Source of the DNA: Planctomycetota bacterium
GTDB taxonomy: Bacteria; Planctomycetota; Phycisphaerae; Phycisphaerales; SM1A02
NCBI GenBank assembly: GCA_016873255.1
Contig: VGXR01000009.1
Location: 610 to 64,609 of the forward strand
DNA: 64,000 nt
Reading direction: 5' to 3'
The position numbers were made by a program, and so were the translations under genes. Below, piece after piece: positions 11,865 to 63,832 of the stretch. The notes below the pieces were generated by a model, which had not been told where the DNA came from, made no database searches, and worked only from the letters and a program-made list of their open reading frames with translations. Each line of letters starts with the position of its first letter. Within the stretch, counting starts at the first letter, position 1.

Positions 11865-11896
11865 GGATTCGCTCCTCGTTACTTTGGCACCAATAT
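11865..11896 (+). repeat. GGCACCAATTG-repeat family, copy 1R
   Basis: GGATTCGCTCCTCGTTACTTTGGCACCAATAT compared with the family core AAATCCGCTCCTGGTTCGTTTGGCACCAATTG. Forms an inverted pair with copy 1F, 28 bp away. Confidence 0.8.
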
Positions 11897-11924
11897 CGGC
11901 GCGGTCATGGCAGGCGGGTTCGGC

Positions 11925-11972
11925 ATTTCTCCGGAGAAGACAAGCGGTGCCAGACTAACCAGGAACGGACTT
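11925..11972 (-). repeat. GGCACCAATTG-repeat family, copy 1F (contains the stop codon of the 11955..12575 gene)
   Basis: ATTTCTCCGGAGAAGACAAGCGGTGCCAGACTAACCAGGAACGGACTT. This is the reverse complement of the family unit. Confidence 0.85.
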
Positions 11973-12575
11973 GCGGCGCTCGAGCTTGGCCTTGATCATG
12001 GCCTTCGGCGTGCAGTGGAAGGTGATGCTGCACTTGCCGACGAGCGGTGCCTTGATGCCGGGCTTGTGCACCTGCTGCCGGATCTCCATCTCGAGCGGGA
12101 TGTTGAACTCGCCGCCCGCGGCGACCCGCGCGTCGAGGTCGCCTGCGTTCATCACCTCGTACGCCGCGGGGCCGTAGCAGGGGCGCAGGAACCGGTAGTG
12201 CATCTCCTTGCAGACCACGATGTAGTCGCTTCCGCAGCGGCCGAAGAGGTAGAGCCCGCCGGCCACCTCGCTGTTGCCCAGGAGCGCCGCGCCCGCCATC
12301 GCGTTGTACCAGTTGCGGTTGAAGCGACGGAAGGGGAGCACCGCCACGAACTGGCGGTCGTCCACGCGCTTCATGGTCAGCCCGGACCGGAACGCGTACG
12401 GCAGCCAGATGGAGCTGAAGGCCTTCTGCAGAAGGTTGCTCTTCATGCTGGTCCGGCTGAGCCACGCCTCGACCTTCTCGCCGAGGGAGAGCGGCCCCGA
12501 TCCCGTGCGCGCGCGGCTGCCGTCGGCGGCGGCGCGGTCGTTGATGGGCTGGTGCTCGGCGTTCACGCTGGACAC
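11955..12575 (-). CDS. hotdog-fold protein, DUF4442/PaaI-thioesterase-like
   Basis: 206-aa ORF with a GTG start. Size and blocks (LPFRRFNRNWYNAMAGAALLGNSEVAGG, ITFHCTPK) resemble DUF4442, by eye. The last five codons KSVPG plus TAG lie inside repeat copy 1F. Confidence 0.5.
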   Translation of the reverse strand: MSSVNAEHQPINDRAAADGSRARTGSGPLSLGEKVEAWLSRTSMKSNLLQKAFSSIWLPYAFRSGLTMKRVDDRQFVAVLPFRRFNRNWYNAMAGAALLGNSEVAGGLYLFGRCGSDYIVVCKEMHYRFLRPCYGPAAYEVMNAGDLDARVAAGGEFNIPLEMEIRQQVHKPGIKAPLVGKCSITFHCTPKAMIKAKLERRKSVPG

Positions 12576-12651
12576 GGAGGGCGCATTCTAGCCCTGCATG
12601 CATGCCCGACACCCCGCGCACGATGGCCGGAAATCGTGCAGAATCCGGGGC

Positions 12652-13470
12652 ATGAGCCGCATCGCCGCCTGTTCATGGAGCCTTCGCACCGAATCGCCCG
12701 ACGCGCTCGCGGATGCGCTTGCACGGTGCGGCCTCTCGGCGGTGCAGCTTGCGCTGGTGCCGAGCGTCGCCGAGCCCGCCGCGTGGGGCCGCGCCATCGA
12801 GCGCCTGCGCGCGCGCGGCATCGACGTGGTGAGCGGAATGCTCGCGACGGTCGGCGAGGACTACTCCACGCTCCAGTCGATCGAGCGCACGGGCGGCATC
12901 CGCCCGACGGAGACCTGGGACCGCAACCAGGAGCTTGCGCGGGCGGTCGCGGCGGTCGCGGGCGCGGCCGGCGTGCCGCTCGTCACCTTCCACGCGGGGT
13001 TCCTGCCGCACGACCGAGCGCATCCGGAGCGGCGCGTCCTGGTTGGTCGCCTGCGCGCGGTGGCCGACATCTTCGCGGCGCGCGGCGTGCGCGTGGCGTT
13101 CGAGACCGGGCAGGAGCGCGCGGACACGCTCGTCGAGGCGCTTGCGGACATCGCGCACCCGAACGTGGGCGTGAACTTCGACCCGGCCAACATGATCCTC
13201 TACGGCATGGGCGACCCGGTGGCGGCCATCCGCACGCTCGCGCCGCACGTGGTGCAGGTGCACGTCAAGGACGCGGTGCCGACCGCCGTGCCGGGCGCCT
13301 GGGGCCGCGAGGTCGTGGCCGGCACGGGCGCGGTCGACTGGACCGCGTTCCTCGCCGCCGTCCGGGCATTGCCCCGGGCGGTGGACCTCGTCATCGAGCG
13401 CGAGGCCGGCCCCACGCGCGAGGCCGACATCCAGGCGGCGGTGGCATTGCTCCGCGCGCTGGGGGCGTAG
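12652..13470 (+). CDS. sugar phosphate isomerase/epimerase (xylose isomerase-like TIM barrel)
   Basis: In frame with ORF 12598..13470, start at ATG 12652. Contains VTFHAGF, VAFETGQE, NFDPANMILYG and VHVKD, typical AP-endonuclease 2/TIM-barrel family motifs. Confidence 0.75.
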   Translation: MSRIAACSWSLRTESPDALADALARCGLSAVQLALVPSVAEPAAWGRAIERLRARGIDVVSGMLATVGEDYSTLQSIERTGGIRPTETWDRNQELARAVAAVAGAAGVPLVTFHAGFLPHDRAHPERRVLVGRLRAVADIFAARGVRVAFETGQERADTLVEALADIAHPNVGVNFDPANMILYGMGDPVAAIRTLAPHVVQVHVKDAVPTAVPGAWGREVVAGTGAVDWTAFLAAVRALPRAVDLVIEREAGPTREADIQAAVALLRALGA

Positions 13471-13503
13471 GCCGGGGACGCGCACGCGCATAGCATTGAA
13501 GGC

Positions 13504-13785
13504 ATGCCCACGTACGCCTATGCCATCATCAAGCCTGACGGCACCGACGGCGAGGTCTTCGAGGTGTTCCAGAAGCTGAGCGATCCGGCGCTCACGAAGC
13601 ACCCGGAGACCGGGGAGCCGGTCCGCCGCATCATCGTCGCGCCGCAGGTGCAGACCTCGAGCGACACGCAGCGGTTCTCCAAGGGCAACCTCGAGCGCCT
13701 CGGCTTCACCCGCTTCGAGCGCAAGGGCAGCGGCTACTTCGAGAAGACCGCCGGCAAGGGCCCGGACGCGATCTCCGCCGACTGA
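13504..13785 (+). CDS. FmdB-family-like small protein lacking the zinc-ribbon cysteines
   Basis: MPTYAY...FEVFQKLSDPALTKHPETGEPVRRIIVAP parallels the FmdB/CxxC_CxxC_SSSS pattern MPxYEYxCxxCGxxFEVxQxxSDxxLTxCPxCGGxVxRxIS. Both CxxC pairs are replaced. Confidence 0.6.
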   Translation: MPTYAYAIIKPDGTDGEVFEVFQKLSDPALTKHPETGEPVRRIIVAPQVQTSSDTQRFSKGNLERLGFTRFERKGSGYFEKTAGKGPDAISAD

Positions 13786-13862
13786 GCGGCGCTGCCTGCG
13801 CTCCCGGCCCGTTCCGCGGCCACGGGTCGGCGGCGCGGCCCGCGCAGCCGGGATTTCCGTAA

Positions 13863-15990
<2,128 letters not shown>

Positions 15991-15998
15991 GCCCCGCC

Positions 15999-16042
15999 TC
16001 CCCGGAGAAAGGAATGGTGCCAGACGAACCAGGAGCGAACCT
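15999..16042 (-). repeat. GGCACCAATTG-repeat family, copy 2F
   Basis: TCCCCGGAGAAAGGAATGGTGCCAGACGAACCAGGAGCGAACCT. It lies 8 bp from copy 2R in inverted orientation. Its outer end is fused to the TAG (16041-16043) of the next minus-strand gene. Confidence 0.85.
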
Positions 16043-16445
16043 AGGCGTCGGTCGCGAAGCGCACCTTGCCTGACGGGTCCACGGTGCACGTGCCCATGCG
16101 GCCGTCGCGCTGCGTGAAGCGCACGCTCATGCCGCCCTCGGCGGGGCGCGAGACCTCGGCCCAGTTCCACGCCGATGCATCGCTCTCCGACTGCGGCGCA
16201 ACCAGCACGCTCTCCTCGGGGTCGGTCGCGTCCACCTGCCGCAGGCTGAACGCAGGGGCCTTGCCCTTGTCGCGGGTCACGCTGAGGAAGTACGCCTGGC
16301 CGCTCACCGTCACCGCCGGGAAGTCGACGCGCGGCGGCTTGGGGAAGAGCGTCCCGCCGAAGAACTTCGCCGCGAAGAACGCCAGCACCAGGAACACCAC
16401 CACGGCGACCGCGACGCTTCGCAGGAAGAGCAGGAACTGGTTCAC
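16041..16445 (-). CDS. hypothetical membrane-anchored protein
   Basis: C-terminal part of ORF 16041..17105. GTG start at 16445 overlaps the uppP TGA (GTGA). N-terminal TM segment LFLRSVAVAVVVFLVLAFFAAKFF. Confidence 0.5.
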   Translation of the reverse strand: MNQFLLFLRSVAVAVVVFLVLAFFAAKFFGGTLFPKPPRVDFPAVTVSGQAYFLSVTRDKGKAPAFSLRQVDATDPEESVLVAPQSESDASAWNWAEVSRPAEGGMSVRFTQRDGRMGTCTVDPSGKVRFATDA

Positions 16446-17386
16446 GCGGTGATTGTAAGGCCCCAGGCCCACCCGGCCGCGAGCACCACCGCGGCCACCG
16501 CGAGGCGCCACCACCCGAACACCGCGAGCGTGTGCCGCCCGAGGTAGCGAACGAGGAACTCGACCGAGAGCGCCGCACTTGCCCACGCCACGGCAAGCCC
16601 CGCCACGATCGGCCCCCAGCCACCGATGGCCGCAACGAACTGCGCGGTCTCGCCGGCCTTCACGATCTTGAGCGCGCTGTAGCCGCTCGCCGCGGTCAGC
16701 GTCACCAGCCCGAGCAGGAAGCTGAACTCCGCCGCCGCCACGCCGCCGAGCCCGACGAGCAGCCCGCCGAGGATGGTCGCGAAGCTGCGGCTCGTGCCGG
16801 GCCACAGCGCCGCGCACTGCATCACGCCGACCAGGAGCGCCTGCCCGGCCGTCATGCGCGCCAGGGCCGCGCCTGCGAGGTCGCTGCCGCGGCCCGTCGC
16901 GCGCGCTGCCTCGGCCGCGGCGCGGTCGGCCGCCAGTCGCCTCGATTGCCACGGCGCGATGGCCAGCATCACGAGCCCTCCCAAGGCGAGCGCGCCGATC
17001 ACCGCCGCCGGGTTGAAGAGGTGCTCCTTGATCGCGTCCTTCGCCGCGAAGCCGATCGCCGCCGCGGGCACGAACGCGATCATCACGTTTCGCGCGATCG
17101 TCCATCCGGCCTGCATCCGGTCCACGGGCCCCAGCCCGCCGACGCCGAGCCTGCTCGCCGTGCCGCGCAACATCTGCCCGACCCGCGCGCGGTAGAGCCC
17201 GAGCACCGCGAGGATCGCGCCGCCCTGGATGATGATCTCGAAGTCGTGCACCGCGCTGCGCTGCTCGGGGGTGCGGTCGAGCCCGAGCGCCCAGCTCGTG
17301 AGGATCAGGTGCCCCGTGCTGGAGACGGGCAGGTACTCCGTGACGCCCTCGACGATGCCGAGCGCGAACGCCTCGAGGATGTTCAC
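16442..17386 (-). CDS. uppP: undecaprenyl-diphosphate phosphatase
   Basis: ORF 16442..17515, trimmed to GTG 17386, which overlaps the ilvC TGA. VNILEAFALGIVEGVTEYLPVSSTGHLIL is the BacA/UppP signature. Confidence 0.9.
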   Translation of the reverse strand: MNILEAFALGIVEGVTEYLPVSSTGHLILTSWALGLDRTPEQRSAVHDFEIIIQGGAILAVLGLYRARVGQMLRGTASRLGVGGLGPVDRMQAGWTIARNVMIAFVPAAAIGFAAKDAIKEHLFNPAAVIGALALGGLVMLAIAPWQSRRLAADRAAAEAARATGRGSDLAGAALARMTAGQALLVGVMQCAALWPGTSRSFATILGGLLVGLGGVAAAEFSFLLGLVTLTAASGYSALKIVKAGETAQFVAAIGGWGPIVAGLAVAWASAALSVEFLVRYLGRHTLAVFGWWRLAVAAVVLAAGWAWGLTITA

Positions 17387-18450
17387 TCGTTGGCTCCCTT
17401 GGTTCCGGCCTCGCCGCCCGGTTCGGCGGCCAGCCACGGCATCAGCGCGCGTACCTCGGCGCCCGCGCGTTCCATCGGGTGCGCGTCGGCCGCCGCGCGC
17501 TCCGCGCGGAACCACCGGCCGCCTGCATCGTGGTCGGCCTGCATGCGCCGCGTGAAGGCGCCGGAGCGGATCTCGTCGAGCAACGCGCGCATCGCGGCCT
17601 TGGTTCGTTCATCGACCATCCTCGGCGCCGCGGCGTAGGTGCCGAACTCCGCGCTGTTGCTGATGGCCGCGCGCATGCCGGCCGGGCCCCGCGCGTAGAG
17701 CAGGTCGGCCACCTGCTTGATCTCGTGGATGCACTCGGTGTAGGCAAGGAGGGGCGGATAGCCGGCTTCCACCAGCACCTCGTACGCCGCCTGCGCAAGC
17801 CCCAGCATGCCGCCGCACAGCACGGCCTGCTCGCCGAAGAGGTCGGTCTCGGCCTCGTCGCGGAAGGTCGTGTGCACGAGCCCCGCGCGCGCGCAGCCGA
17901 GTCCCGCGGCCCACGCGCGTGCGATGTCCAGGGCGCCGGGGCCGCCGTGGGCGCGATCGCGTTCGGCGTGCATCGCCACGAGCGCCGGGATTCCCTGGCC
18001 CATCACGAATCGCTCGCGCAGGGTGGTGCCCGGGCCCTTCGGCGCCACGAGCACCATGCCGATGCCGGGCACCGGCTTCACCAGCCCGAAGTGGACGCTC
18101 GAACCATGGATGAACCCGGCGGTCTGCCCGGGCACCAGGCTCGGTGAGATGGCCCCTGCCCAGGCCGCCGCATGCGCCTCATCGGGCAGGGCAACGATCA
18201 CCAGGTCGGTGCCTCGCACCGCCTCGGGGGTGTCGAGGGTGCGGAAGCCCTCGGACTCCGCCCGGGCACGGGTCGTCGAACCGGGCCGGCCGCCAATTCG
18301 GACATCCACGCCGGAGTCTCGGAGGTTGAGCGCGTGGGCCCGCCCCTGGTTTCCGTAGCCGATCACCGCCACAGGCCGGCCAGCGAGTGCGGCGGCCGTA
18401 ACACCGCGCTCCACGGGGAGTTGGAGGTGATTTTCTTGGCTCGGGGGCAT
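17383..18450 (-). CDS. ilvC: ketol-acid reductoisomerase (class I)
   Basis: ORF 17383..18486. VAVIGYGNQGRAHALNLRDSG, VAPKGPG and DLFGEQAVLCGG motifs. The start could be 18450 (MPPSQ) or 18486. Confidence 0.9.
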   Translation of the reverse strand: MPPSQENHLQLPVERGVTAAALAGRPVAVIGYGNQGRAHALNLRDSGVDVRIGGRPGSTTRARAESEGFRTLDTPEAVRGTDLVIVALPDEAHAAAWAGAISPSLVPGQTAGFIHGSSVHFGLVKPVPGIGMVLVAPKGPGTTLRERFVMGQGIPALVAMHAERDRAHGGPGALDIARAWAAGLGCARAGLVHTTFRDEAETDLFGEQAVLCGGMLGLAQAAYEVLVEAGYPPLLAYTECIHEIKQVADLLYARGPAGMRAAISNSAEFGTYAAAPRMVDERTKAAMRALLDEIRSGAFTRRMQADHDAGGRWFRAERAAADAHPMERAGAEVRALMPWLAAEPGGEAGTKGANE

Positions 18451-18755
18451 GGTTGGGTTCCCCGCGCTTTGGGCCAGAATCGGCACAATCTGCAGGAAAG
18501 AGCGGGCACATTACATGACCGGGGCCCGTTGCAAACCCACACTCCGTCTGAACCGCCTGTTCGGGCTGCGCAGGGCAGGCCGAAGGCGGGGGGCCGAGGC
18601 CTCTGGCTTCGGAGCTGGGTCCGATGTTCAGGGATTTCAAGGCAATTGCCGAGAATCGCCGAACACGACGTAGGACAAGGACGTTCTCCTCTATGCGGTA
18701 CCCAGGCCCCAGTTCGCAGTTCGGCCACCGAATGCTCGGCCAAGGAGCAGCAGGC

Positions 18756-19232
18756 ATGGTCACAGTCGAAGCACCGAACCGCCGGTCGGAAGACCGTTTC
18801 CGGTTCAGCCCGGCGTACACCCGGGTGGTGGTGGTTCCTTTGGCATCGCCTGTTCGGGGTGCAGGGATCGGGGCTCATCCGGCGGTGATGCACGGCGAGT
18901 CGGACGAAGTCCTCGACCTCGAGGGTTTCGACGACGGACTCGGCACGCCCGAGGGCGGCATGGAAGGGCATGGCTACGACGTCTCGCTCACCGGCATGCG
19001 GTTCGAGCTTGATGATGCGTTGCCCGCGGGCACCGAGGTGTCCATCGAGCTTTACCCGCCGGCCGAGCGCGATCCGATCCGGATGCGCGGCACGGTGGTT
19101 CGCGTGTTCAGCACCGACGACGATCCGGGCCCGCGCCGCATGGCCGTGCAGTTCACCGGGTTCGACTCGCCGGCCGACCGCGACCGCCTGACCGCCAGGA
19201 TCGACGCGCGCATCTGCTGCTGGCCGGGCTGA
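18756..19232 (+). CDS. PilZ domain protein (c-di-GMP receptor-like)
   Basis: In frame with ORF 18624..19232. ATG 18756 lies 9 nt after AAGGAG. RRSEDRFRF (RxxxR) and GYDVSLTGMRF (DxSxxG) motifs. Confidence 0.65.
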   Translation: MVTVEAPNRRSEDRFRFSPAYTRVVVVPLASPVRGAGIGAHPAVMHGESDEVLDLEGFDDGLGTPEGGMEGHGYDVSLTGMRFELDDALPAGTEVSIELYPPAERDPIRMRGTVVRVFSTDDDPGPRRMAVQFTGFDSPADRDRLTARIDARICCWPG

Positions 19233-19287
19233 CGCCCACGGCCGTGCGGACGCGGCAACGGATTGCCGCCACCGCGCGACGCGATGC

Positions 19288-19794
19288 ATGAGGACGCGCC
19301 CCGTGTTTGCGCACCAAGGAGAGCCGAACTTCCAGCACCCCGCGGCGCGCGCTGCATCGGCCGCGCGCAACGAGGTCGCGGCCGAGATGGCCGTGGCCGG
19401 GCGCGCCGGGCTGCTGCCGGGCGAGCGATGCTGGTCGGACGCGTCGGTCGCCTTGCTCGAGCCCGGTGACTCCGCGTGGGTGGTTGCCTCCGACGAGTTC
19501 CAGCGCCTGCGCGAAGACCTGGTTGCGGGCGGTGCGCCCGAGGTCAGCGCCGACGCGCCGGTAGGCCTGCACCGGGCCGCGATGTCGGCGGTGGCGGTCC
19601 CGGTCGGGGCCGCGGTCGGTGCGGTGCCCGCCGTGCGCGGCAGGGGCGCGGGTGCCGACGGCGTGCGGCGGACCGGCGCGCGACGCCGGCGCGAGCGGAT
19701 GGAGACGGCCTTCTGGTTCGCGGTGGGCGGCGCGGGCGGCCTGGCCCTCGCGATCGGCGTTCGGGCCCTGGAAGTGGTGGTGGCGTGGCTGTGA
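19288..19794 (+). CDS. hypothetical protein with C-terminal TM segment
   Basis: 168-aa ORF. Its TGA overlaps the GTG start of rnc (GTGA), suggesting coupling. No recognisable domain. Confidence 0.4.
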   Translation: MRTRPVFAHQGEPNFQHPAARAASAARNEVAAEMAVAGRAGLLPGERCWSDASVALLEPGDSAWVVASDEFQRLREDLVAGGAPEVSADAPVGLHRAAMSAVAVPVGAAVGAVPAVRGRGAGADGVRRTGARRRRERMETAFWFAVGGAGGLALAIGVRALEVVVAWL

Positions 19795-20528
19795 GCGGTG
19801 CGCAGGACGCGGTTGCGGCTCTCGAGGCGCTGACCGGGCACGCGTTCCGCGACCCGGGGCTGGTGCGCACCGCGCTGGTGCACTCGTCGGCGGCGGAGCG
19901 GCGCGTCGACAGCAACGAGCGGCTCGAGTTCCTCGGCGACTCCGCGCTCGGGTTCATCGTCTGCACGTACCTCTACGCGGCCCGTCCCGACCTGCTCGAA
20001 GGCGAGCTGACGAAGGTGAAGTCCAACGTGGTGAGCGGCCGCGTCCTCGCGGAACTGGCGCTCGAGTGCGGCCTTGACCGGCTGATGACCATCGACAAGG
20101 GCGTGCGCGGCCGGCAGGGCCTGCCCGAGAGCCCGCTTGCGGGCGTGTTCGAGTCCGTGGTCGGCGCGCTGTTCCTCGACGGCGGGCTGGAAGCGGCGCG
20201 GTCGTTCGTGCTGCCGCTCATGGAGCGGCGGATCGAGGCCGCGCTGCGGCTCGGGCACCAGCAGAACTTCAAGCAGGTGCTGCAGCAGTGCCTCGCCCAG
20301 CTTGACATGGGGCTGCCGCAGTACACGGTGCTCGACGAGCAGGGCCCCGACCACGCGAAGGCGTTCGAGATCTGCGTGCAGGCGGGGGCGCGGCGCTTCG
20401 GCGGCGCGTGGGGATCCAGCAAGAAGCAGGCCGAGCAGCTTGCGGCGCTGACGGCGCTGCGGGAACTTGGGCTTGCGGAGGACACCGCCGACGGCGAGGT
20501 CCGGATCGTGTGGCCGACGGCGGGGTAA
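19791..20528 (+). CDS. rnc: ribonuclease III
   Basis: In frame with ORF 19476..20528. NERLEFLGDSALG signature and a dsRBD at the C-terminus. The TAA stop is fused to repeat copy 3R. Confidence 0.9.
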   Translation: MSGAQDAVAALEALTGHAFRDPGLVRTALVHSSAAERRVDSNERLEFLGDSALGFIVCTYLYAARPDLLEGELTKVKSNVVSGRVLAELALECGLDRLMTIDKGVRGRQGLPESPLAGVFESVVGALFLDGGLEAARSFVLPLMERRIEAALRLGHQQNFKQVLQQCLAQLDMGLPQYTVLDEQGPDHAKAFEICVQAGARRFGGAWGSSKKQAEQLAALTALRELGLAEDTADGEVRIVWPTAG

Positions 20529-20587
20529 GTCCGCTCCGGCAAATCCGCTCCGGTGCATCCGCTCCTGGTCAATCTCGGCACCAATTC
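20529..20587 (+). repeat. GGCACCAATTG-repeat family, copy 3R with a triplicated 5' module
   Basis: GTCCGCTCCGGCAAATCCGCTCCGGTGCATCCGCTCCTGGTCAATCTCGGCACCAATTC. TCCGCTCC recurs at 20530, 20544 and 20558 (14-nt period). Confidence 0.8.
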
Positions 20588-20620
20588 TTGGGGGCGCGCA
20601 CCTGCCTTCCCGCGGTCGAG

Positions 20621-20650
20621 ATTGGTGCCAAACTAACCAGGAGCGAACTT
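20621..20650 (-). repeat. GGCACCAATTG-repeat family, copy 3F (contains the last 5 codons and TAG of aroK)
   Basis: ATTGGTGCCAAACTAACCAGGAGCGAACTT. Lies 33 bp from copy 3R in inverted orientation. Confidence 0.85.
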
Positions 20651-21184
20651 CAGCAGGCGCTCGAGCGTCGCGGCGGTGTCGCCGTCGGTGGTGACGGTCG
20701 CGTCGGCCAGCGCCCGGTAGGCGGGCATGCGTCGCTCCGCAAGGAGCGCGGCTTCCTCCGCGAAGTTCGCCCCCAGGAGGAGGGGGCGATCGCCGGGTGC
20801 CACCGCAAGGCGAGCGCCGAGCACCGCGGGCGCGGCATCGAGCAGCACGATGCGGATGCGGCCCTGCGCGCGCGCGGCCTCGAGCATCTCTCGCGCGCCC
20901 GGCGCCGTGGGCGTGCCGCCTCCGAGGGCGATCACCGCACGGCCGCACGCCGGGTCGGCAAGCACCTCGGCCAGCGCGCGCGCCTCGGCGGCTCGGAACG
21001 CGGGTTCGCCCGCGGCGCGGAACATCGCGCTCACGGATGCGTGGCCGCTTCCGGCGACGGTGCGATCGTCGAGATCGATGAACGGAACCCTCGCACGGGC
21101 CGCGAGCAGCCTGCCGAGGGTGGTCTTTCCGGATCCGCGCAGCCCGATCAGGACCGTCGCGGGGCGATGATGGAGGTCTCCCAC
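20633..21184 (-). CDS. aroK: shikimate kinase
   Basis: 183-aa ORF. LIGLRGSGKTTLGRLLA P-loop and FIDLDD. The C-terminal KFAPG plus TAG are encoded by repeat copy 3F. Confidence 0.85.
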   Translation of the reverse strand: MGDLHHRPATVLIGLRGSGKTTLGRLLAARARVPFIDLDDRTVAGSGHASVSAMFRAAGEPAFRAAEARALAEVLADPACGRAVIALGGGTPTAPGAREMLEAARAQGRIRIVLLDAAPAVLGARLAVAPGDRPLLLGANFAEEAALLAERRMPAYRALADATVTTDGDTAATLERLLKFAPG

Positions 21185-21188
21185 CTGC

Positions 21189-21323
21189 TCAGCGGACGCG
21201 GATGGCGCGGCCGACGCGACGCTTGCGGTTCAGGATGGCGCGGCCCTTGCGCGTCTTCATGCGGGCGCGGAACCCGATCTTGCGAACCTTCTTGATGCGG
21301 CTGATTCTGTGCGGGTAGTGCAT
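21189..21323 (-). CDS. rpmH: 50S ribosomal protein L34
   Basis: Too short for the ORF track. Manual reverse translation gives MHYPHRISRIKKVRKIGFRARMKTRKGRAILNRKRRVGRAIRVR (44 aa). This matches the L34 pattern xxKRxRxHGFRxRMxTxxGRxxLxxRRxKGR. Confidence 0.9.
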   Translation of the reverse strand: MHYPHRISRIKKVRKIGFRARMKTRKGRAILNRKRRVGRAIRVR

Positions 21324-21436
21324 GGCTGGTTCCGGGGAGCCAAGCAGTGTAGCGGGGAGCGGGTTGCGGTGGAAGCGCCGACGAGGTGTCCTCCGCGACG
21401 GCGATTATCGGCGCACGCGGCTGCCCCGGGCGGGAG

Positions 21437-21482
21437 TTCTCCAGAGAGAGGAAATGGTGCCGAACGAACCAGGAGCGGATTT
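21437..21482 (-). repeat. GGCACCAATTG-repeat family, copy 4F (fused to the phoU TAA stop)
   Basis: TTCTCCAGAGAGAGGAAATGGTGCCGAACGAACCAGGAGCGGATTT followed by A. The reverse complement reads gagTAAATCCGCTCCTGGTTCGTTCGGCACC. Confidence 0.9.
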
Positions 21483-22137
21483 ACTCGCCGTGGCGGACGA
21501 CGCGGCCCTCGACGAGGAAGATGACGTCCTCGGCGATGTTGGTGGCGATGTCGGCGATGCGCTCGAGGCGCTGCGCGATCTGCATCATGTCGATCGCCTC
21601 GGCGGTGCGCGTGACGTCGTCCTGGATCAGCTGCCGGCTCATTGCCACAACCTCCTTGTTGAGGTTGTCCACCTGGCGGTCGGCGCGGCGCACCTCGCGG
21701 CAGCGGTCGGCGTCCTCGTCGCTCAGGGCCGCGAGCACGTCGGCGAGCATCGCCTGCGCGGCCGAGGCCATGTCGCAGAGCGCGCCCGGCACCTCGGTGG
21801 GACCGTTGCCCGCGGACCAGCGGATCACCTTCTTGGCGATGCCGCGGCTCAGGTCGGCGATGCGCTCGAAGTCCGACGAGATGCGCACCACGCTCAGCAC
21901 GAAGCGCAGGTCGTGGGCCACGGGCGCGCCGAGCGCGAGGATCCGCATGCACTGCGTCTCGAGCTCCACCTCCATGGTGTCGACCTCGGTGTCGCCCGCC
22001 TTCACCTCCTGCGCGGCGGCGATGTCGCCGTCCACGAGCGCCCGGCTTGCGAGGGCCACCCGTCGCTCGGTGGCGGCGCCCATCGCGAGCAGGCTGCGGC
22101 GGAGGTTGAGGATCTCGGTCTGGAGGTCGATGGCCAT
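21481..22137 (-). CDS. phoU: phosphate signalling complex protein PhoU
   Basis: ORF 21481..22515, trimmed to ATG 22137 (MAIDLQTEILNL). Two PhoU repeats with the ExxRIADxAxNIAE-type motif (FERIADLSRGIAKK, LERIADIATNIAED). Confidence 0.9.
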   Translation of the reverse strand: MAIDLQTEILNLRRSLLAMGAATERRVALASRALVDGDIAAAQEVKAGDTEVDTMEVELETQCMRILALGAPVAHDLRFVLSVVRISSDFERIADLSRGIAKKVIRWSAGNGPTEVPGALCDMASAAQAMLADVLAALSDEDADRCREVRRADRQVDNLNKEVVAMSRQLIQDDVTRTAEAIDMMQIAQRLERIADIATNIAEDVIFLVEGRVVRHGE

Positions 22138-22226
22138 GGTGTGGTTTCGGTTCGGATCGGGTTCAGGAGGTCGATTGCGGGCGTGCGCGTCCCTCGGCGC
22201 GGGGGCGCGGGCCCCCGGGCCGGTGC

Positions 22227-23150
22227 TCAGCCGAAGCGCCCGGAGACGTAGTCCTCGGTCTGCTTGCTCTGCGGGTTGGTGAAGATGCGGTCGGTGTCGC
22301 CCGCCTCGACGAGCGAGCCTTCGTAGAAGAACGCCGTGCGGTCGCTGACGCGCGCGGCCTGCTGCATGTTGTGGGTGACGATGACGATCGTGTACTGGCT
22401 CTCGAGCTCGCGGATCAGCTGCTCGATGCTGGCCGTCGACCGCGGGTCGAGCGCGGAGCAGGGCTCGTCCATCAGGAGCACCTCGGGCCCCACCGCCACG
22501 GCGCGCGCGATGCACAGGCGCTGCTGCTGGCCGCCCGACAGGCCGAGCGCGCTCGCGCCCAGGCGGTCCTTCACCTCGTCCCAGAGCGCCGCGGCGCGCA
22601 GCGAGCTCTCGACGAGCTCGTCGAGGTCATGGCGCGCGAACTTGCGGTGGAGGCGCGGGCCGAACGCCACGTTGTCGTAGATCGACTTCGGGAACGGGTT
22701 GGGCTTCTGGAACACCATGCCCACGCGCCGCCGCAGCTCGACCACGTCGCGCTGCGGCGCGAGCAGGTCCTCGCCGTCGAGCTGCAGCCGCCCGCCGGCG
22801 CGCGCGCCGACGATGGCATCGTTCATGCGGTTGATCCACCGCAGGCACGTGCTCTTGCCGCACCCCGAGGGTCCGATGAACGCGGTCACCTGGCGCCGCG
22901 GGATCTCGAGCGAGATGCCCTTGAGCGCGTGGAAGTCGCCGTACCAGGCGTCGAAGCCCTGCGCGCTGATGGCGATGCCGTCCGGGGCCACGGGTCCCGG
23001 GACCTTCGCCGCGGGCGTGGGCGTTCGGACTTGCAGGTCGCCGTTGGGTCGTCCTGCGGCGGGTGCGCCCGGCGCCGTTGCGAGGGGCGGCTGCGGGGAG
23101 GCGGTGGCCTGTGCGGGAGTCGTCATGGTGGCGCTCGATGCGGCGGTCAT
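22227..23150 (-). CDS. pstB: phosphate ABC transporter ATP-binding protein
   Basis: [11 protein letters not shown] Walker [15 protein letters not shown] signature, LLMDEP Walker B. An Ala/Pro-rich N-terminal extension of about 60 aa applies if the annotated start is used. Confidence 0.9.
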
Positions 23151-23157
23151 GGCGTGT

Positions 23158-24135
23158 TCAGCCTGCGTTTCGCTGCAGCCGCTGGCGGATGACCACCGCG
23201 ACGGCGTTGAAGGTGAGGAGGACGGCGAGGAGGACGAGGATGGCCGCGGCGGCGAGTTCGCTGAACCCTGCCTGCGGCCGGTTGGCCCAGTAGTAGATCT
23301 GGAAGGGGAGGACCGTGAAGTCGCTCGTCAGGTTGGTGGGGACGCTCCTGATGAAGAGCGGCACGCCGAGCACGAGCATCGGCGCGGCCTCGCCGATGGC
23401 GCGGCTGATGGCCAGGATGGACCCCGTCATCACCATGGGCAGCGCCGACGGGAGCGTGACGTTCCAGGTGGACTGCCACTGCGTGGCGCCGAGCGCGAGC
23501 GCGCCGCCGCGGAGGCTGCGCGGAACCGAGCGCAGCGCCTCCTGGCTGGAGACGATCACGATGGGCAGCACCACGAGCATCAGCGTGAGCCCGCCCGCGA
23601 GCACGCCGTTGCCGAACGGGAACTGGATGAAGAACGGGCCCTCGGGGTTGCCGATCGAGATCGGCTGGTCCGCATCCACCGCGCCGAACATGCGCGCGAA
23701 GGCGGTGAGGCCGAGGATGCCGTACACGATGGACGGCACGCCGGCGAGGTTGGCGATGTTGAGCTTGATGAACGAGGTGAGCCGCGACTTGCGCGCGAAC
23801 TCCTCGAGGTAGAGCGCCGTGCCCACCCCCACCGGGATGGCCGTCAGCGCGCAGATGGCGCAGACCCAGACGCTTCCCCAGAGCGGCGCCTTCACGCCGG
23901 CGGCGTCGGGCTTGCGGCTGGTGAAGTTCTGCAGGAAGTCCCAGCCGAGGCGCTCGTGGCCCTGCCGCCACACGGTGATGAGGAGCACCGCGAGGATGCA
24001 CACCGCGAGGCCCGTGAACGCAAGGCACGCCACCAGGAACGCCCGGTCCGCCGCCGCGCGCAGCGCCGCCGAGGAGCGCGGCGCCGCGTCCACGATCTCG
24101 GCGGGGGATCGGACCTGCGCGGCCGCGGGCGACAT
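23158..24135 (-). CDS. pstA: phosphate ABC transporter permease PstA
   Basis: C-terminal 325 aa of ORF 23158..24981. ATG 24135 overlaps the pstC TGA (ATGA). Contains the EAA-like loop [22 protein letters not shown]. Confidence 0.9.
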
Positions 24136-25106: not shown

Positions 25107-25157
25107 GGCAGGGGCCCGTCGGGGCCCGGATCCTACCGGGCCGCCACCGGGGTCAGG

Positions 25158-26147: not shown

Positions 26148-26166
26148 GGGGTGTTCTCTTCGTGCC

Positions 26167-27501: not shown

Positions 27502-27502
27502 G

Positions 27503-29567: not shown

Positions 29568-30557
29568 ATGCCTCGTTCCCTCGTCACCGGCGGCGCCGGA
29601 TTCCTGGGCTCGCACCTCTGCGACTCGCTGCTTGCCTCGGGACACTCGGTGGTCTGCCTCGACAACCTGTTCACGGGCACGAGGCAGAACATCCGGCACC
29701 TCGACGGCACGCGGGGCTTCACGTTCGTGCACCACGACGTGATCCACCCGTTCGACTTCGACGTCGACTACATCTGGAACATGGCGTGCCCCGCCGCGCC
29801 GGGGCACTACCGGTACGAGCCGGTGAAGACCACCATGACCTCGGCGCTCGGGGCGCTGCATTGCCTCGAGCTTGCCAAGCAGAGCGGTGCGCGCCTGCTG
29901 CACGCGTCCACCAGCGAGGTGTACGGCGACCCCGAGGTGCATCCGCAGCCCGAGAGCTACCGCGGAAACGTGAACCCGATCGGGCCGCGCGCCTGCTACG
30001 ACGAGGGCAAGCGGGTGGCCGAGACGCTGTGCTTCGACTTCCGGCGGCTGCATGGCACGTCGATCAAGGTGGCCAGGATCTTCAACACGTACGGTCCGCG
30101 CATGCACCCCTACGACGGGCGCGTGGTGAGCAACTTCATCCGCCAGGCGGTGACCGGCGAGGCGATGACGATCTTCGGCGACGGCACGCAGACGCGGTCG
30201 TTCTGCTACGTCGGCGACCTCATCGATGCGTTCCGCCTCCTGATGGACACGCCCGAGGGGTTCACCGGGCCGGTGAACCTGGGCAACCCGCACGAATTCA
30301 CCATGAACGAGCTGGCCGAGGTGGTGGCCCGGCACGCCGGCGTGCAGGCCACCGTGGACCGGCGCCCGCTGCCGATGGACGATCCGCTGCAGCGGCAGCC
30401 CGACATCACGCTCGCGAAGAAGGCGCTCGGCTGGGAGCCGGTCGTCGGACTCGAGGAGGGCATCCCGCGCACGATCGAGTGGTTCCGGTCGGTGCGCCTG
30501 GAGGACTACCCGCCGCCGAGCCCCAACGTCATGCAGCCCGAGGCGCAGAAGCGGTAA
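29568..30557 (+). CDS. uxs: UDP-glucuronate decarboxylase (UDP-xylose synthase)
   Basis: In frame with ORF 28998..30557, ATG at 29568. [29 protein letters not shown] and [11 protein letters not shown]. The TAA stop overlaps the first bases of repeat copy 5R. Confidence 0.9.
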
Positions 30558-30597
30558 ATCCGTTCCTGGTTGCTGAGGCACCAATGTCTCCCGGGGG
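30556..30597 (+). repeat. GGCACCAATTG-repeat family, copy 5R (solo)
   Basis: AAATCCGTTCCTGGTTGCTGAGGCACCAATGTCTCCCGGGGG directly after, and overlapping, the uxs TAA. Confidence 0.8.
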
Positions 30598-50585: not shown

Positions 50586-50958
50586 GTCGTGCCTCTCGGG
50601 GCCGTGCGGCCGCCGTGCGTTCGGTCCGATGGCGGTCGTGGGCCCAAGTCGCGTGGGCAGGACCGTTGCGCAGGCCGGTCTTCCGGCTTGGGGGCTCCGG
50701 ACCCGCCTTCCCGGCCTGCCGCATTGCACGGCGTGCCAGTGGCTTCAAGGGTCGCGGCGGCGGGCATGGTGCCCGCGGCCCCACTCACGGCGGCGCGTCC
50801 GCGGCGGTATTGCACCGCCTTCCCGAGCCGAGCCCCACGACGCCGAACGGACCGGTCCGGCGGGCGTGGCGACCCGGCCTTCCGCAGCCACGGGGCTGCG
50901 GACGCCTGCGCGGCGGAGAGTGTAGCGAGCGCCGGGGAACAGCGTCCCGGAACTTTCG

Positions 50959-53591: not shown

Positions 53592-53598
53592 TCGCTGC

Positions 53599-53634
53599 AT
53601 GGCGGGCGGTGCCCTGACGGGCAGCGCCCGCCAT
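53599..53634 (+). terminator. GC-rich hairpin 3' of tRNA-Thr
   Basis: ATGGCGGGCG...CGCCCGCCAT (10 bp) extended by 5 inner pairs, followed by TTCGCTTCG. Confidence 0.65.
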
Positions 53635-53742
53635 TTCGCTTCGCCCCCCGCTGTCCGGCGGGGCCGGCCAGCCCCTCCCGGCGGAGCCGGTCGGGTGGTC
53701 TTCGCGCTCGCGGCTCGCGTCGAATCCCTTTGATTCCTCCGG

Positions 53743-53781
53743 AGAATTCAATTGGTGCCAAACGAACCAGGAACGGATTTA
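53743..53781 (-). repeat. GGCACCAATTG-repeat family, copy 6F (solo)
   Basis: ATTCCTCCGGAGAATTCAATTGGTGCCAAACGAACCAGGAACGGATTT followed by A. It lies 7 nt from the TAA of the minus-strand ORF ending at 53788. Confidence 0.9.
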
Positions 53782-58547: not shown

Positions 58548-59516
58548 ATGCTCGACCGGCGCTCCGAGCCCACGACGATCGTCCCTGTCTCGCGCCGCGC
58601 CGCGCTCGGCACCATCGGCCTCGCGGCCGCCGCGGTGGCCGCCGGGTGCGCCCGCACGGGGAGCGGCGCGCGCGCGGCGGGCGCGGCAGCGGACGGGGCG
58701 CGCGGGCTCCGGCGGACCATGACGCTCGCGGAGTGGTCCGTGAATCGCATGATCAAGGCCGGCACGCTGACCACGCTCGACTTCCCCGCACTTGCCCGCC
58801 GCGAGTGCGGGATCGGGTCCGTGGAGTACGTGAGCACGCTGTTCGCGGGACGTGGCCTCGAGGCTTCCTACCTCGGCGAGCTGCGGACCCGCTGCGAGGG
58901 CGAGGGCGTGCGCAGCGTGCTGATCATGATCGACGGCGAAGGCGACCTCGGCGCGCCGGAGGCGGGCGCCCGGCGCGAGGCGGTCGAGCGGCACCTCCGC
59001 TGGGCCGAGTCCGCCCGCGTGCTCGGCTGCTCCTCGATCCGCGTGAACGCGCGCAGCGAGGGGACGCGCGACGAGCAGCTCGCGCGCTGCGCCGACGGGA
59101 TCGGCACGCTTGCCGACCGCGCGGCGGGCCTCGGCATGGACGTCATCGTGGAGAACCACGGCGGCATCAGCTCCGACGGGTCGTGGATGGCGGCGCTGAT
59201 GCGTGCGACGGCGCGCCCGAACTGCGGCACGCTCCCCGACTTCGGGAACTTCCGCATGGAGGGCGGTGGGCAGTACGACCGGTACCGCGGCATCGCCGAG
59301 ATGCTGCCGTGGGCGCGCGACGTGAGCGCCAAGAGCTACGCGTTCGATGCGGACGGGAACGAGACGACCATCGACTACGCGCGGATGTTCCGCATCATGG
59401 ACGACGCGGGGTACTCCGGCTGGGTCGGGATCGAGTTCGAGGGCAAGGGGATGCCCGAACGCGAGGGCATCCTCGCCACCAAGCGCCTGCTCGAGCGGAT
59501 GGGCGTGCGCGCCTGA
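58548..59516 (+). CDS. sugar phosphate isomerase/epimerase (xylose isomerase-like TIM barrel) with TAT signal
   Basis: 322-aa ORF. SRRAALGTIGLAAAAVAAG twin-arginine signal. IRVNA, VIVENHGG and GWVGIEFEG blocks. Confidence 0.8.
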   Translation: MLDRRSEPTTIVPVSRRAALGTIGLAAAAVAAGCARTGSGARAAGAAADGARGLRRTMTLAEWSVNRMIKAGTLTTLDFPALARRECGIGSVEYVSTLFAGRGLEASYLGELRTRCEGEGVRSVLIMIDGEGDLGAPEAGARREAVERHLRWAESARVLGCSSIRVNARSEGTRDEQLARCADGIGTLADRAAGLGMDVIVENHGGISSDGSWMAALMRATARPNCGTLPDFGNFRMEGGGQYDRYRGIAEMLPWARDVSAKSYAFDADGNETTIDYARMFRIMDDAGYSGWVGIEFEGKGMPEREGILATKRLLERMGVRA

Positions 59517-59580
59517 GCGGATGGGCGTGCGCGCGTGAGCGGATGGGCGTGCGCGCCTGAGCGGATGGGCGTGCGCGCCT
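59493..59580. repeat. 22-bp tandem repeat x4 that duplicates the 3' end (including TGA) of the 58548..59516 gene
   Basis: GAGCGGATGGGCGTGCGCGCCT at 59493, 59537 and 59559, with variant ...GCGCGT at 59515. The first unit encodes the terminal ERMGVRA, and its last base is the T of the TGA. Confidence 0.95.
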
Positions 59581-59605
59581 GGGCGCCCGTACACTTTCCG
59601 CCCCA

Positions 59606-61964: not shown

Positions 61965-63364
61965 TCTACCGGCGGATCTACGACCACGCGCTCGCGCAGG
62001 CGAGCTACCTCGTCGGCTGCGACGAGACGCGCGAGGCGGTGCTCGTCGATCCCGAGCGCGACATCGACCGCTACGAGCGCGAGGCCGAGGATGCGGGCGT
62101 GCGGATCGTGGCCGTGGCCGAGACGCACCTGCACGCGGACTTCGTGAGCGGGGTGCGGGCGTTCGTGGCATCGCGTCCGGTGACGGCGTACATGAGCGGA
62201 GTCGGCACCCGTGCGCCGTGGACCGCGGAGGGGCCGTTCCACGCAGGTGCTTCGCTGCGGTTCCTCGGCGACGGCGAAGAGTTCCGCGTGGGATCGCTGC
62301 TGTTCCGCGCGCGGCACACGCCCGGGCACACGCGCGAGGCGCTGAGCTTCGAGTTCGTGGGCGAGCAGGGCTTCCCGATCGCGCTGTTCTCGGGGGACTT
62401 CCTCTTCGCGGGCGATGTCGGGAGGCCGGACCTCGGGTTCCTCGCAAGCGGCGGCATGACCGTGGAGGAGAGCGCCGACGCGCTGCGGCGCAGCCTGGCG
62501 CTGCTCGACGACATGCCGGACGCGACGGTCGTCCTGCCGGGGCACGGCGCGGGCAGCGCGTGCGGCAAGATGATCTGCCGGCTCCCGGAGACGACGGTCG
62601 GCATCGAGCGCGTGATCAACCGGCCGCTTCGATCCAAGGACGACGGCGCGCGCTTCGTGGAGGGGCTCCTCCGAGACCAGCCCGACCCGCCGCCGTACTT
62701 CGGGCGCGTGAAGAAGGCGAACGAGGCGGGACCGGCGGTGCACGGCTGCGTGCCGTCGCCGCCGAGGCTCGGGCCCGAGGCCTTCGTGGCCGCGTCCCGC
62801 GAGCTGGCGCGCGTGGTGGTCGACACGCGCGAGTGGGGTGCCTGGGTGGACGGGCACCTGCCGGGGTCGATCTTCGCCATGCTCGACCCGTACTTCGGCC
62901 CGACCACCGCCAACTACCTCGAGCCCGGCGACGAGGTGCTGCTGGTGGTGGACGAGGACCGCGTCGAGGAGGCGGTGCGCGTGCTGTACCGCGTCGGGAT
63001 CGACGGCTTCGCCGGCTGGATCGCGCCGCGCGACTTCGTCCGCATCGACGAGGACGCGTTCGAGGCATCCGGGTGCGAGGAGATCTCGCCGCGCGAGGCC
63101 AACCGGCGCATCCTCTCCGGTGCGCTGGCGCTCGACGTGCGCAGCAGGCAGGAGTTCGCCAAGGGCCACATCGCGGGTGCGTTGCAGGTGCCGTTCATCC
63201 AGCTCTCGGCGCGCATCGGCGAGCTCGACCGCGCGCGGCCCGTGGTTGCCTACTGCCGAAGCGGCAACCGCAGCGCGCGCGCGTGCGCGTTCCTGCGGCG
63301 CCATGGCTTCGAGGTCGCCAACCTGCGCGGCGGCTACTGGCCCTACGCGGGCCGCGGATTCTGA
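61961..63364 (+). CDS. MBL-fold metallo-hydrolase fused to rhodanese-like domains (persulfide dioxygenase-like)
   Basis: In frame with ORF 61622..63364. GTG 61961 overlaps the kbl TGA (GTGA). ETHLHADFVSG, HTPGHT and LPGHGAGS. C-terminal rhodanese with YCRSGNRS. Confidence 0.8.
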   Translation: MIYRRIYDHALAQASYLVGCDETREAVLVDPERDIDRYEREAEDAGVRIVAVAETHLHADFVSGVRAFVASRPVTAYMSGVGTRAPWTAEGPFHAGASLRFLGDGEEFRVGSLLFRARHTPGHTREALSFEFVGEQGFPIALFSGDFLFAGDVGRPDLGFLASGGMTVEESADALRRSLALLDDMPDATVVLPGHGAGSACGKMICRLPETTVGIERVINRPLRSKDDGARFVEGLLRDQPDPPPYFGRVKKANEAGPAVHGCVPSPPRLGPEAFVAASRELARVVVDTREWGAWVDGHLPGSIFAMLDPYFGPTTANYLEPGDEVLLVVDEDRVEEAVRVLYRVGIDGFAGWIAPRDFVRIDEDAFEASGCEEISPREANRRILSGALALDVRSRQEFAKGHIAGALQVPFIQLSARIGELDRARPVVAYCRSGNRSARACAFLRRHGFEVANLRGGYWPYAGRGF

Positions 63365-63367
63365 CCG

Positions 63368-63416
63368 AAATCCGCTCCTGGTTCGTTTGGCACCAATTGA
63401 TTTCTCCAGAGAAATC
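63368..63416 (+). repeat. GGCACCAATTG-repeat family, copy 7R (left arm of a 465-bp composite element)
   Basis: AAATCCGCTCCTGGTTCGTTTGGCACCAATTGATTTCTCCAGAGAAATC, starting 4 nt after the TGA at 63364. The inner end forms a GATTTCTC/GAGAAATC-type hairpin. Confidence 0.9.
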
Positions 63417-63783
63417 AGGTTGTCGCTTCGGTCGCGCGGGTGGACGGGCGTGGACGCCTCGGCGACCGGTGGTGGGGACGGTTGCGCTCGCGGTGCGCGG
63501 TGCGCCTGGACGCCTCGGCGACCGGCGGTGGCCTCAGTCGCTCGGACAAGTTGCACGCGGCGGGTGCATCTGCGGCGGGGCGCGCGCGGCCGGGGCGTGC
63601 AACAACTCGCTTGATGAGGCCACCACCGTTCGCTGTCGGCTCGGGGCGACGAACGTCGGGAGGGGGTCGGGCGCTGGCTGTCGTTCATTTGCGTGCGACC
63701 GAATCCGGGGAACGCAACCCGTCATTCGGCGCGGCCGCCGCCGGAACCACCGCAACCCGTCAACCAACCACCACCCGCTCCCA

Positions 63784-63832
63784 GATTTCTATTGAGAAAT
63801 CAATTGGTGCCAAACGAACCGGGAGCGGATCT
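63784..63832 (-). repeat. GGCACCAATTG-repeat family, copy 7F (right arm)
   Basis: Reverse complement: AGATCCGCTCCCGGTTCGTTTGGCACCAATTGATTTCTCAATAGAAATC. Its outer end is fused to the TAG (63831-63833) of the last gene. Confidence 0.9.

Follow-up and report, generated by a model that had tools for sequence, protein, structure and literature searches.

The closest described relatives of the repeat family discussed here are systems in which short extragenic repeats accompany a Y1 transposase: the REPIN-RAYT systems or REPtrons, which pair repetitive extragenic palindromes (REPs) with a REP-associated tyrosine transposase, RAYT (Nunvar 2010, PMC2817692; Bertels & Rainey 2011, PMC3116915; Ton-Hoang and Messing 2012, PMC3479197), and the TIRtrons with their TIRYT enzymes (Di Nocera 2013, PMC3733652), which correspond to TnpAY1 subclass 2.1 and to RAYT group 1 of Bertels (Quentin 2018, PMC6006769). 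We analysed a stretch of 64,000 nucleotides of a planctomycete contig (VGXR01000009.1, positions 610 to 64,609; hereafter the window) in which eleven copies of a short repeat unit lie at or near the ends of genes. The host is an uncultured, freshwater, Phycisphaerales-type planctomycete with 72% G+C, and the repeats belong to a REPIN/RAYT system of the TIRtron-like kind. The initial annotation, made from the sequence alone, had called the repeat undescribed; this holds for the sequence family, which is new and without an Rfam match, and does not hold for the class, which is known. The explanation we prefer, with a probability of about 0.78, is that REPIN-type non-autonomous elements carry the units as their terminal inverted repeats, that these elements are mobilised by a single-copy Y1 HUH transposase of the RAYT/TIRYT type, and that the stop codons which the units provide are kept by selection.

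The planctomycete family resembles REPIN-RAYT systems in its high-copy extragenic repeats, which occur as inverted hairpin doublets and decaying singlets, in a syntenic Y1 HUH transposase gene situated between two inverted cognate repeats, in the co-divergence of repeat and enzyme between related species, in the lack of target-site duplication, and in its preference for convergent and tandem spacers. It differs in that the unit consists of a 33-nt non-palindromic box and a weak 7-bp hairpin, whereas REPs are imperfect palindromes of 20-40 nt, and in that it lacks their GTAG/GTGG foot. The enzyme is longer (220-293 aa) and scores under the NCBIfam cut-off for RAYTs, some elements are long forms of 178-733 nt with a conserved internal hairpin and tandem modules, and the host is a planctomycete, not a gammaproteobacterium.

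TIRtrons are probably the closest description, because long terminal inverted repeats, and not REP palindromes, stand on either side of the RAYT-like gene, and because the enzymes are about 240 aa long with NHVH, WE, Y..NP and SS motifs. Measured against the table in PMC6006769, the proteins show the TIRYT pattern of NHVH, W[EQ], Y[IV]xxNP and a downstream SS motif, so that they would fall into subclass 2.1, an assignment made by motif inspection only. As in TIRtrons, the repeats form genomic families of singles, dimers and clusters. Unlike the majority type of TIRtron, the planctomycete consensus contains no GGGGWSAS on either strand; Pfam finds only Y1_Tnp in the 293-aa protein, with no helix-turn-helix or DnaA_C-like C-terminal domain; and the density in the window, about 170 units per Mb, looks higher than that of families described as moderately abundant. 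No REP-like sequences were reported beside subclass 2.1 genes by Quentin et al. (PMC6006769).

That a repeat terminus can act as the stop codon of a flanking reading frame was already reported for the GTAG REPs, which contribute TAG stops from their ends (Di Nocera 2013, PMC3733652). The planctomycete repeats share this property and likewise lie near or overlap coding regions. Here, unlike in the GTAG REPs, the stop is mostly TAA formed across the boundary (written T|AA, the bar marking the edge of the element), so that only AA comes from the conserved repeat, and the unit has further in-frame stops at +15 and +30. Two other families are tolerated because reading frames are preserved: the MIRUs of Mycobacterium, which lie within operons as direct tandem units encoding small peptides and whose ends overlap flanking stop or start codons, and the RPEs of Rickettsia, which lie inside open reading frames (ORFs) and are read in frame as parts of proteins. 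Neither MIRUs nor RPEs are known to be tied to a Y1 transposase or arranged in inverted doublets.

A repeat family at the ends of genes

The repeat has about 50% G+C in a window of 72% G+C, and repeat finding recovered it as direct and inverted matches. Its core, TCCTGGTTNNTNTGGCACCA, has nine matches with up to three mismatches, compared to 0.04 expected from shuffles. Two profile hidden Markov models (nhmmer) were used, one covering the 33-nt box and a 52-nt model for which 101 non-redundant copies were taken; each finds exactly the eleven units that had been annotated in the 64 kb and none besides. The consensus of the 52-nt model is (t/g)AAATCCGcTCCTGGTTAGTTTGGCACCAATTgttTTCTCcaGAGAAatc, and the commonest variant within the window is GGTTCGTTTGG...AATTGA. 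Each unit is laid out as the 33-nt box (G/T)AAATCCGYTCCTGGTT(A/C)GTTTGGCACCAATTG, followed by the short palindrome TTTCTCCAGAGAAA, with the 7-bp hairpin TTTCTCC/GGAGAAA after the box. Every copy lies in a spacer or overlaps only the last codons of a gene. An Rfam scan of the window at gathering thresholds returned tRNAs and a cobalamin riboswitch only, with no match on the repeat, and E-value scans of positions 63300-63900 and of positions 100-920 of a related contig (L063; L numbers designate sequences outside the window) gave nothing credible. A tRNA-like origin of the GGTTCG...GCACCA segment was considered and ruled out, as there is no tRNA or Rfam signal.

Genes were predicted from codon usage by a crude caller for which the window itself served as training set, and Pfam agrees with the names given earlier to RNase III, shikimate kinase, PhoU, the epimerase/dehydratase and the MBL-rhodanese protein. 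The claim that the repeat sits on stop codons is borne out for the named genes. The TAA stops of rnc, phoU and uxs and the TAG stops of ORF 16041 and of the ORF at the window end are fused to units, the stops of ligA (TGA at +30), aroK (TAG at +15) and the hotdog-fold gene at 11955-12575 (TAG at +15) lie inside units, and the TGA of the MBL-rhodanese gene is found 3 nt before one. Most genes do end in TGA (48 of 59 complete genes), and the TAA and TAG stops are largely derived from the repeat, which provides seven of the eleven. Together with the TGA of ligA, this means that eight of the 59 genes (about 14%, roughly one in seven) stop on the repeat.

The orientation and position of the units relative to stop codons are not random. 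Eight of the eleven outer ends fall within -30 to +30 nt of a stop in the same sense; random positions give a mean of 0.31 and random intergenic positions one of 0.76, and none of 3000 trials of either kind reached the observed number. Of the ten convergent spacers three contain units, as do four of the 38 tandem spacers; the 11 divergent spacers contain none. The more general statement that the AAATCC end always touches a stop applies to most units and breaks down at 11865, where the unit faces the start of a gene on the minus strand (10709-11857) at a distance of 7 nt. The ORF at 53788, whose stop was said to lie 7 nt from a unit, has no coding signal and no Pfam match and was discarded.

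A scan of a collection with one genome per species using the 24-nt core gave one true match, directly after a TAA stop in a Phycisphaerales metagenome-assembled genome (L002); the other match (L001) lies inside a gene and is due to chance. The family is narrow, given this single true match. The LigA protein of the window is present in Lake Tanganyika-type metagenomes, and its homologs are named Planctomycetota or Phycisphaerales. Scanning lake metagenomes with the core pattern retrieved 85 stretches, together about 0.75 Mb and almost all with 70-73% G+C, and the related contigs contain 140 significant matches at 78 non-redundant sites. Three architectures are found: doublets of two inverted units (98-108 nt), long forms (178-733 nt), and solos. 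The long forms have the same inverted terminal units, G-rich and C-rich flanks, one to four tandem modules and an internal hairpin of about 104 nt. The modules are about 55 nt long and contain GGACGCCTCGGCGACCGG. The interior of the long forms has no match in Rfam, and among 17 distinct copies the stems of its hairpin are almost invariant, so that nothing was concluded from covariation. Many contigs terminate within long forms, as is expected of multicopy DNA.

For each unit the three upstream frames were scored by codon usage, and a confident gene end was located between -23 and +30 in 65 of the 78 units. The stop straddles the boundary at -1 in 33 of these (30 T|AA, one T|AG and two T|GA) and at -2, as TG|A, in six; it lies inside the unit at +15 in 12 (TAG in frame 0, after the tail KS[AV]PG) and at +30 in two (TGA), and 4-23 nt upstream of the unit in the remaining 12. 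Stop-codon donation is thus unusually pervasive, with 53 of 65 resolved gene ends (82%) stopping on the element, and no read-through in frames 1 or 2 was seen among the scored units. Decayed copies retain the junction stop, with TAA altered to TAG or TGA, and in one arm in L105 a single T-to-A change creates an in-frame TAA that is used by aroK. By sequence comparison, the junction stops appear to be kept by selection. The base immediately outside the box is A in no case, C in four, G in 35 and T in 39, and G makes up about 85% of those cases in which the base plays no role in a stop. Some units adjoin a start codon instead, at a distance of 2-17 nt.

Two further ideas about the box were rejected. 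The suggestion that copies keep the TAG at +15 only if a gene stops on it was dropped as circular; a frame-0 gene without this TAG stops at +30. A role of the reverse-complement AGGAG as a Shine-Dalgarno sequence for downstream genes was not supported, the spacing to the ATG being 11-16 nt and the L105 variant having no GGAG.

The Y1 transposase bracketed by units

The window itself contains no transposase, as had been noted. The candidate mobiliser is found in related contigs. One long form in L059 holds an ORF of 293 aa between the modules and the right-hand unit, the protein lies inside a long element in L093-96 as well, and the interior of the window's own long form recurs directly upstream of the transposase gene in L059 and L093. 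The 293-aa protein matches Pfam Y1_Tnp with 51 bits (cut-off 23) and the NCBIfam IS200 model with only 25 bits. The HUH motif NHVH and the catalytic tyrosine motif YVEQNP are conserved across homologs, and an alignment of proteins of 216-293 aa shows NHVH, NWE, YVEQNP and WSS. The clearest arrangement is that of L106, where two inverted units of about 50 nt at 383-433(+) and 1455-1505(-), which are exactly of the window's family (nhmmer E about 1e-18 each), bracket a Y1_Tnp ortholog of 85% identity. The left unit forms T|AA with the stop of the upstream gene, and the right unit is read in frame by a convergent methyltransferase. In L106 the transposase gene is bordered by plain single units, not by the long-form interior seen in L059 and L093. 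In the related DNA, about 0.9 Mb in all, units bound no gene other than that of the Y1 HUH transposase.

The neighbours of the transposase gene (Methyltrans_SAM, rhaM and a fucose pyrophosphorylase) are the same for orthologs of 73-100% identity from independent samples. This would fit a single-copy, vertically inherited gene and not an insertion sequence. The repeats change along with the enzyme. L097, whose enzyme is 73% identical, bears AAATCCGTACCCGGTTACATATGCACC repeats, and L099, at 60% identity, has a classical palindromic repeat, ACGGAACCCGGTTGACCGGGTTCAC, on both sides of the gene, each copy abutting the TAA stop of a neighbour. In both contigs the transposase gene is delimited in the manner of L106, by the contig's own variant of the repeat, and repeat and enzyme co-diverge. 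The transposase ORFs of L059 (395-1276) and L097 (6001-6780) extend into the right-hand unit, their stops lying within it or immediately beyond; the protein P0001 ends in ...NWCQTNQERIS, and P0005 ends in ...QQMVQT, followed by the TAA of the unit. The enzyme's own stop is therefore also supplied by the repeat.

The comparison with Correia, REP and RPE elements drawn in the initial annotation was apt for the REP type and is not supported for Correia-like elements moved by a DDE transposase. Correia elements of Neisseria and other miniature inverted-repeat transposable elements (MITEs) that insert at TA are similar in that they measure about 100-150 nt, form hairpins, have terminal inverted repeats, lie close to the ends of genes and may be co-transcribed. 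A MITE of this Correia/IS630-like kind would account for terminal inverted repeats of 33-50 nt, for an element length of about 100 nt, and for the T|A found at six of the eleven outer junctions in the window, a reading of the ends as TA that we could reproduce. However, the expected duplication is missing: none of 30 complete elements has a direct duplication of flanking bases, of TA or otherwise, the bases at left -1 and right +1 are independent, and G is about as frequent as T at -1. Moreover, the only gene bounded by units encodes a Y1 enzyme, and no DDE parent was seen in the related contigs (about 0.9 Mb). This explanation is already contradicted, and we consider it very improbable.

An origin from REPIN-type elements of a Y1 transposase would extend REPIN/RAYT systems, which have been studied almost only in Gammaproteobacteria, to an uncultured freshwater lineage of planctomycetes, and probably to a subclass of Y1 enzymes thought to be without high-copy repeat partners. 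The family also offers a clean and quantified case of a selfish or commensal repeat that shapes gene ends. From a practical perspective, the repeats break assemblies, cause spurious ORF extensions and account for most of the rare TAA and TAG stops.

Spacer replacement and the choice of site

Contigs syntenic with the window at 10-23 kb were found through ligA homologs. L102 and L103/L104, whose ligA is 82-84% identical, have zero copies of the repeat in 10-18 kb; at four orthologous loci these contigs have spacers of 12-36 nt, and their genes end 0-3 codons from the gene ends of the window. L105 (ligA 87% identical) has its own variants of the repeat at three shared loci and an extra copy between an AP-endonuclease and a Zn-ribbon gene, where the same site is empty in the window. 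At all filled sites the element stands where the final 0-3 codons of the gene and its stop would be, takes up the spacer largely or completely, and abuts the next gene at its stop or, at 2-17 nt, its start. These are therefore not clean insertions; spacer DNA was either lost after insertion or removed by the insertion process.

In the mechanism that we propose for the REPIN-type elements, the mobiliser would be a single-copy chromosomal Y1 HUH transposase, encoded outside the window and bracketed by the same inverted units, which would act on the single-stranded hairpin without causing a target-site duplication, by analogy with IS200/IS605 and E. coli TnpA-REP. Elements would survive only downstream of genes, in the convergent and tandem spacers of a compact genome. 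The outer end, (G/T)AAATCC...GGTTAG or ...AATTGA, holds stop triplets in two reading frames, and junctions would therefore persist where a gene ends on the element: with T|AA or TG|A across the boundary, with TAG or TAA at +15, or with TGA at +30. Purifying selection would then hold these stops while the rest of the copy decays.

Several observations weigh against this reading. Association alone points to mobilisation by the transposase. The best NCBIfam match of the enzyme, REP-associated tyrosine transposase (REP_Tyr_transpos), reaches 70.7 bits and stays under the cut-off of 80, and a sequence search of the PDB gave a weak IS200-like match (2ec2) and did not recover E. coli TnpA-REP. The unit has no GTAG foot of classical REPs, and single units are not significant palindromes, their folds being no more stable than those of shuffled sequences (z -0.2 to +0.1). 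Spacers are not interrupted by the elements but replaced as a whole, and a search for presence/absence polymorphism with the flanks of 102 elements in populations 97-99% identical found none, and thus neither a fresh insertion nor a clean empty site; the differences that were found concern the number of long-form modules or come from the more distant L102-L104. Finally, random insertion followed by selection does not predict the large excess of T|AA (30-33) over TG|A (6) in a genome in which 80% of genes end in TGA; that hardly any spacer is left over, and that the base at -1 is confined to G and T, would not be expected from it either.

The junction counts invite a refinement in which insertion itself is directed to stop codons, the transposase or strand transfer preferring the T (or a K|A step) of stops, or the DNA at gene ends. 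Per available site, T|AA is far commoner than frame-0 fusions or insertions into spacers, and in two of three comparable cases T|AA lies exactly at the ancestral stop codon (phoU, from TGA to T|AA, and a 140-aa ORF). The base at -1 is restricted to G or T even where no stop is formed, and the diverged REP family of L099 is fused to TAA on both sides as well. Truncated 5' remnants of 11-16 nt (AAATCCGCTCC plus 3-5 nt) stand in tandem before a full box, an arrangement found at three independent loci, and the stop codon of the gene is retained in the first of them; this suggests repeated arrival, or replacement, at one gene end. However, a target after the T of TGA should leave GA beyond the element, and the right flanks instead show A or C followed by unrelated bases. 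Under K|A-step targeting of TGA, TG|A should dominate, which it does not. Both ends of a doublet can be fused to convergent stops, which a single insertion cannot achieve without deletion of the spacer, and units also adjoin start codons at 2-17 nt. Simple models of the junctions were tried, namely insertion behind the T of TGA, targeting of K|A steps, deletion through microhomology and drift of the stop codon, and none fits the counts fully. Neither random insertion with selection nor insertion at the T of TGA nor deletion through microhomology accounts for every observation, and we therefore retain stop-directed insertion as a refinement of the preferred explanation, albeit an unlikely one. 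The excess of T|AA and the G/T-only flank give a handle on how RAYT-type enzymes choose their sites.

An alternative explanation is that the units are a cis-acting 3' element selected by the host, such as a bidirectional terminator, an RNase III or mRNA-stability element, or a modulator of translation termination, and that mobility is incidental or extinct. The pairs noted in the initial annotation are real and fold, with the correction that the pair with a 367-bp spacer is a single composite element of 465 nt. The consensus-like doublets are very stable (-59 to -64 kcal/mol, z -10 to -17), units occur only downstream of genes and never in divergent, promoter-containing spacers, the whole spacer between convergent genes can be substituted by the element, and copies are stable across populations. 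In E. coli, REPs near stop codons reportedly affect translation and mRNA decay. On the other hand, the doublets of the window are weaker (z -0.8 to -3.6), those at 11865-11972 having decayed to -0.8, and solos, about a third of the copies in the window, have no significant structure (z about 0). No terminator-like site was called at any of the five repeat loci scanned in 11500-31000; the hairpin is not followed by a free U-tract, since the predicted folds have the terminal TTT paired to the leading AAA. Sister species run the same gene pairs on repeat-free spacers of 12-36 nt, and the transposase association together with the co-divergence points to a selfish or commensal origin. We regard a host-selected element as improbable. 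A role of the doublets in termination or processing is possible but is not needed to explain the data; under the REPIN-type explanation, a terminator or mRNA-stabilising function of the hairpin would be a secondary consequence.

A wider claim can be put forward only tentatively, and we consider it somewhat unlikely: that this is the first dense REPIN population of a subclass 2.1/group 1 (TIRYT-type) Y1 transposase and the first in Planctomycetota, in which the termini have evolved, or insertion is biased, to land on or become a stop codon, so that over 10% of genes take their stop from the element, which also stands in for the spacer downstream of them in a compact genome of high G+C content.

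Units and other features of the window

Repeat units of the window and associated loci in related contigs (positions refer to the window unless an L number is given)
Feature	Position	Strand	Remarks
Decayed doublet, 108 nt	11865..11972		two inverted units; nhmmer; RNA fold -34.5 kcal/mol, z -0.8
Left box	11865-11897	+	faces start codon of gene 10709-11857(-), 7 nt off
Right unit	11923-11972	-	gives TAG stop 11955-11957 (+15, frame 0) of gene 11955-12575(-)
Doublet, 98 nt	15945..16042		occupies entire space between convergent ligA and ORF 16041-16472(-); nhmmer; fold -37.4 kcal/mol, z -3.6
Left unit	15945-15993	+	codes ligA tail and TGA stop (+30, 15975-15977)
Right unit	15995-16042	-	T|AG stop of ORF 16041-16472(-)
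Two truncated 5' box remnants, AAGTCCGCTCCGGC and AAATCCGCTCCGGTGC	20527-20540, 20541-20556	+	first overlaps rnc stop (20526-20528) as T|AA
Doublet	20557..20650		between convergent rnc and aroK; nhmmer; 20529-20650 folds with -52.4 kcal/mol, z -3.6
Left box	20557-20589	+	rnc side, behind the two remnants
Right unit	20607-20650	-	gives aroK TAG stop 20633-20635 (+15)
Solo unit	21434..21482	-	first two bases finish phoU stop T|AA (21481-21483)
Solo box	30556..30592	+	fused to TAA stop (30555-30557) of uxs-like gene
Near-consensus solo	53733..53780	-	noncoding DNA about 140 nt downstream of tRNA-Thr; no confident gene end attached
Long form, 465 nt	63368..63832		left end 3 nt past MBL-rhodanese TGA (63362-63364); DNA fold -156 kcal/mol, z -9.1
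Left terminal unit of long form	63368-63416	+	inverted relative to right terminal unit
Right terminal unit of long form	63784-63832	-	T|AG stop of window-end ORF (63831-63833)
Two GGACGCCTCGGCGACCGG modules of long form	63452-, 63508-		interior of long form
Internal hairpin of long form	63524-63627		conserved
Long-form interiors	63417-63783; L063 158-860; L092 3630-4362; L059 1-394
Tandem 5' remnant loci	20527-20556; L010 ~4030; L024 ~122		orthologs in L044, L046
Extra segments of L034	~7330, ~8800, ~9886		L034 8210-9065, 5794-6761, 4134-4751

Comparison of individual loci illustrates the different states in which the elements are found. The doublet at 11865 is decayed in the window, its orthologs in L034, L068 and L070 are near consensus, and the orthologous loci in L102 and L104 are repeat-free with a spacer of 27-36 nt. 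Compared with L034 (2045-2152), the flanks of this doublet are about 97% identical, and each of the two window units departs from its near-consensus L034 counterpart at 6-7 of 33 positions; this would be explained by fast decay in the window or by gene conversion or re-insertion that refreshed the copies in L034. At the ligA locus the repeat encodes a KSVPG tail of LigA. Repeat-free ligA orthologs end in ...AALG, and the empty site in L102 is a spacer of 36 nt. Between rnc and aroK, what had been listed as one unit at 20529-20587 resolves into the two truncated remnants and one box (20557-20587 of that interval); the orthologous empty site in L103 has a 12-nt spacer. The phoU genes of L103 and L105 are without the repeat and have TGA at the equal codon position, and L016 holds an orthologous copy of the solo at 30556.

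Some observations concern other parts of the window. L034, which is 97% identical, has three extra segments of 0.65-1.0 kb without counterpart in the window, the third of which looks like an internal deletion within the window gene 9405-10100. ARAGORN called a tRNA-Ser(tga) of 93 nt at 10653-10745(+), which the Rfam tRNA model did not report at the gathering threshold; as it reaches from the end of a predicted ORF into the beginning of the following one, the call is doubtful. Directly after the tRNA-Thr, positions 53592-53650 (ATGGCGGGCG...CGCCCGCCAT) form a G+C-rich hairpin followed by TTTCGCTT, which looks like a conventional terminator, unlike the repeat units. A cobalamin riboswitch aptamer (Rfam RF00174, 42.8 bits) is located at 50656-50851(-), upstream of a gene ending near 50561, and a 22-nt tandem repeat, GAGCGGATGGGCGTGCGCGCCT, present in about four copies of 95-100% identity at 59493-59580, spans the end of gene 58548-59516.

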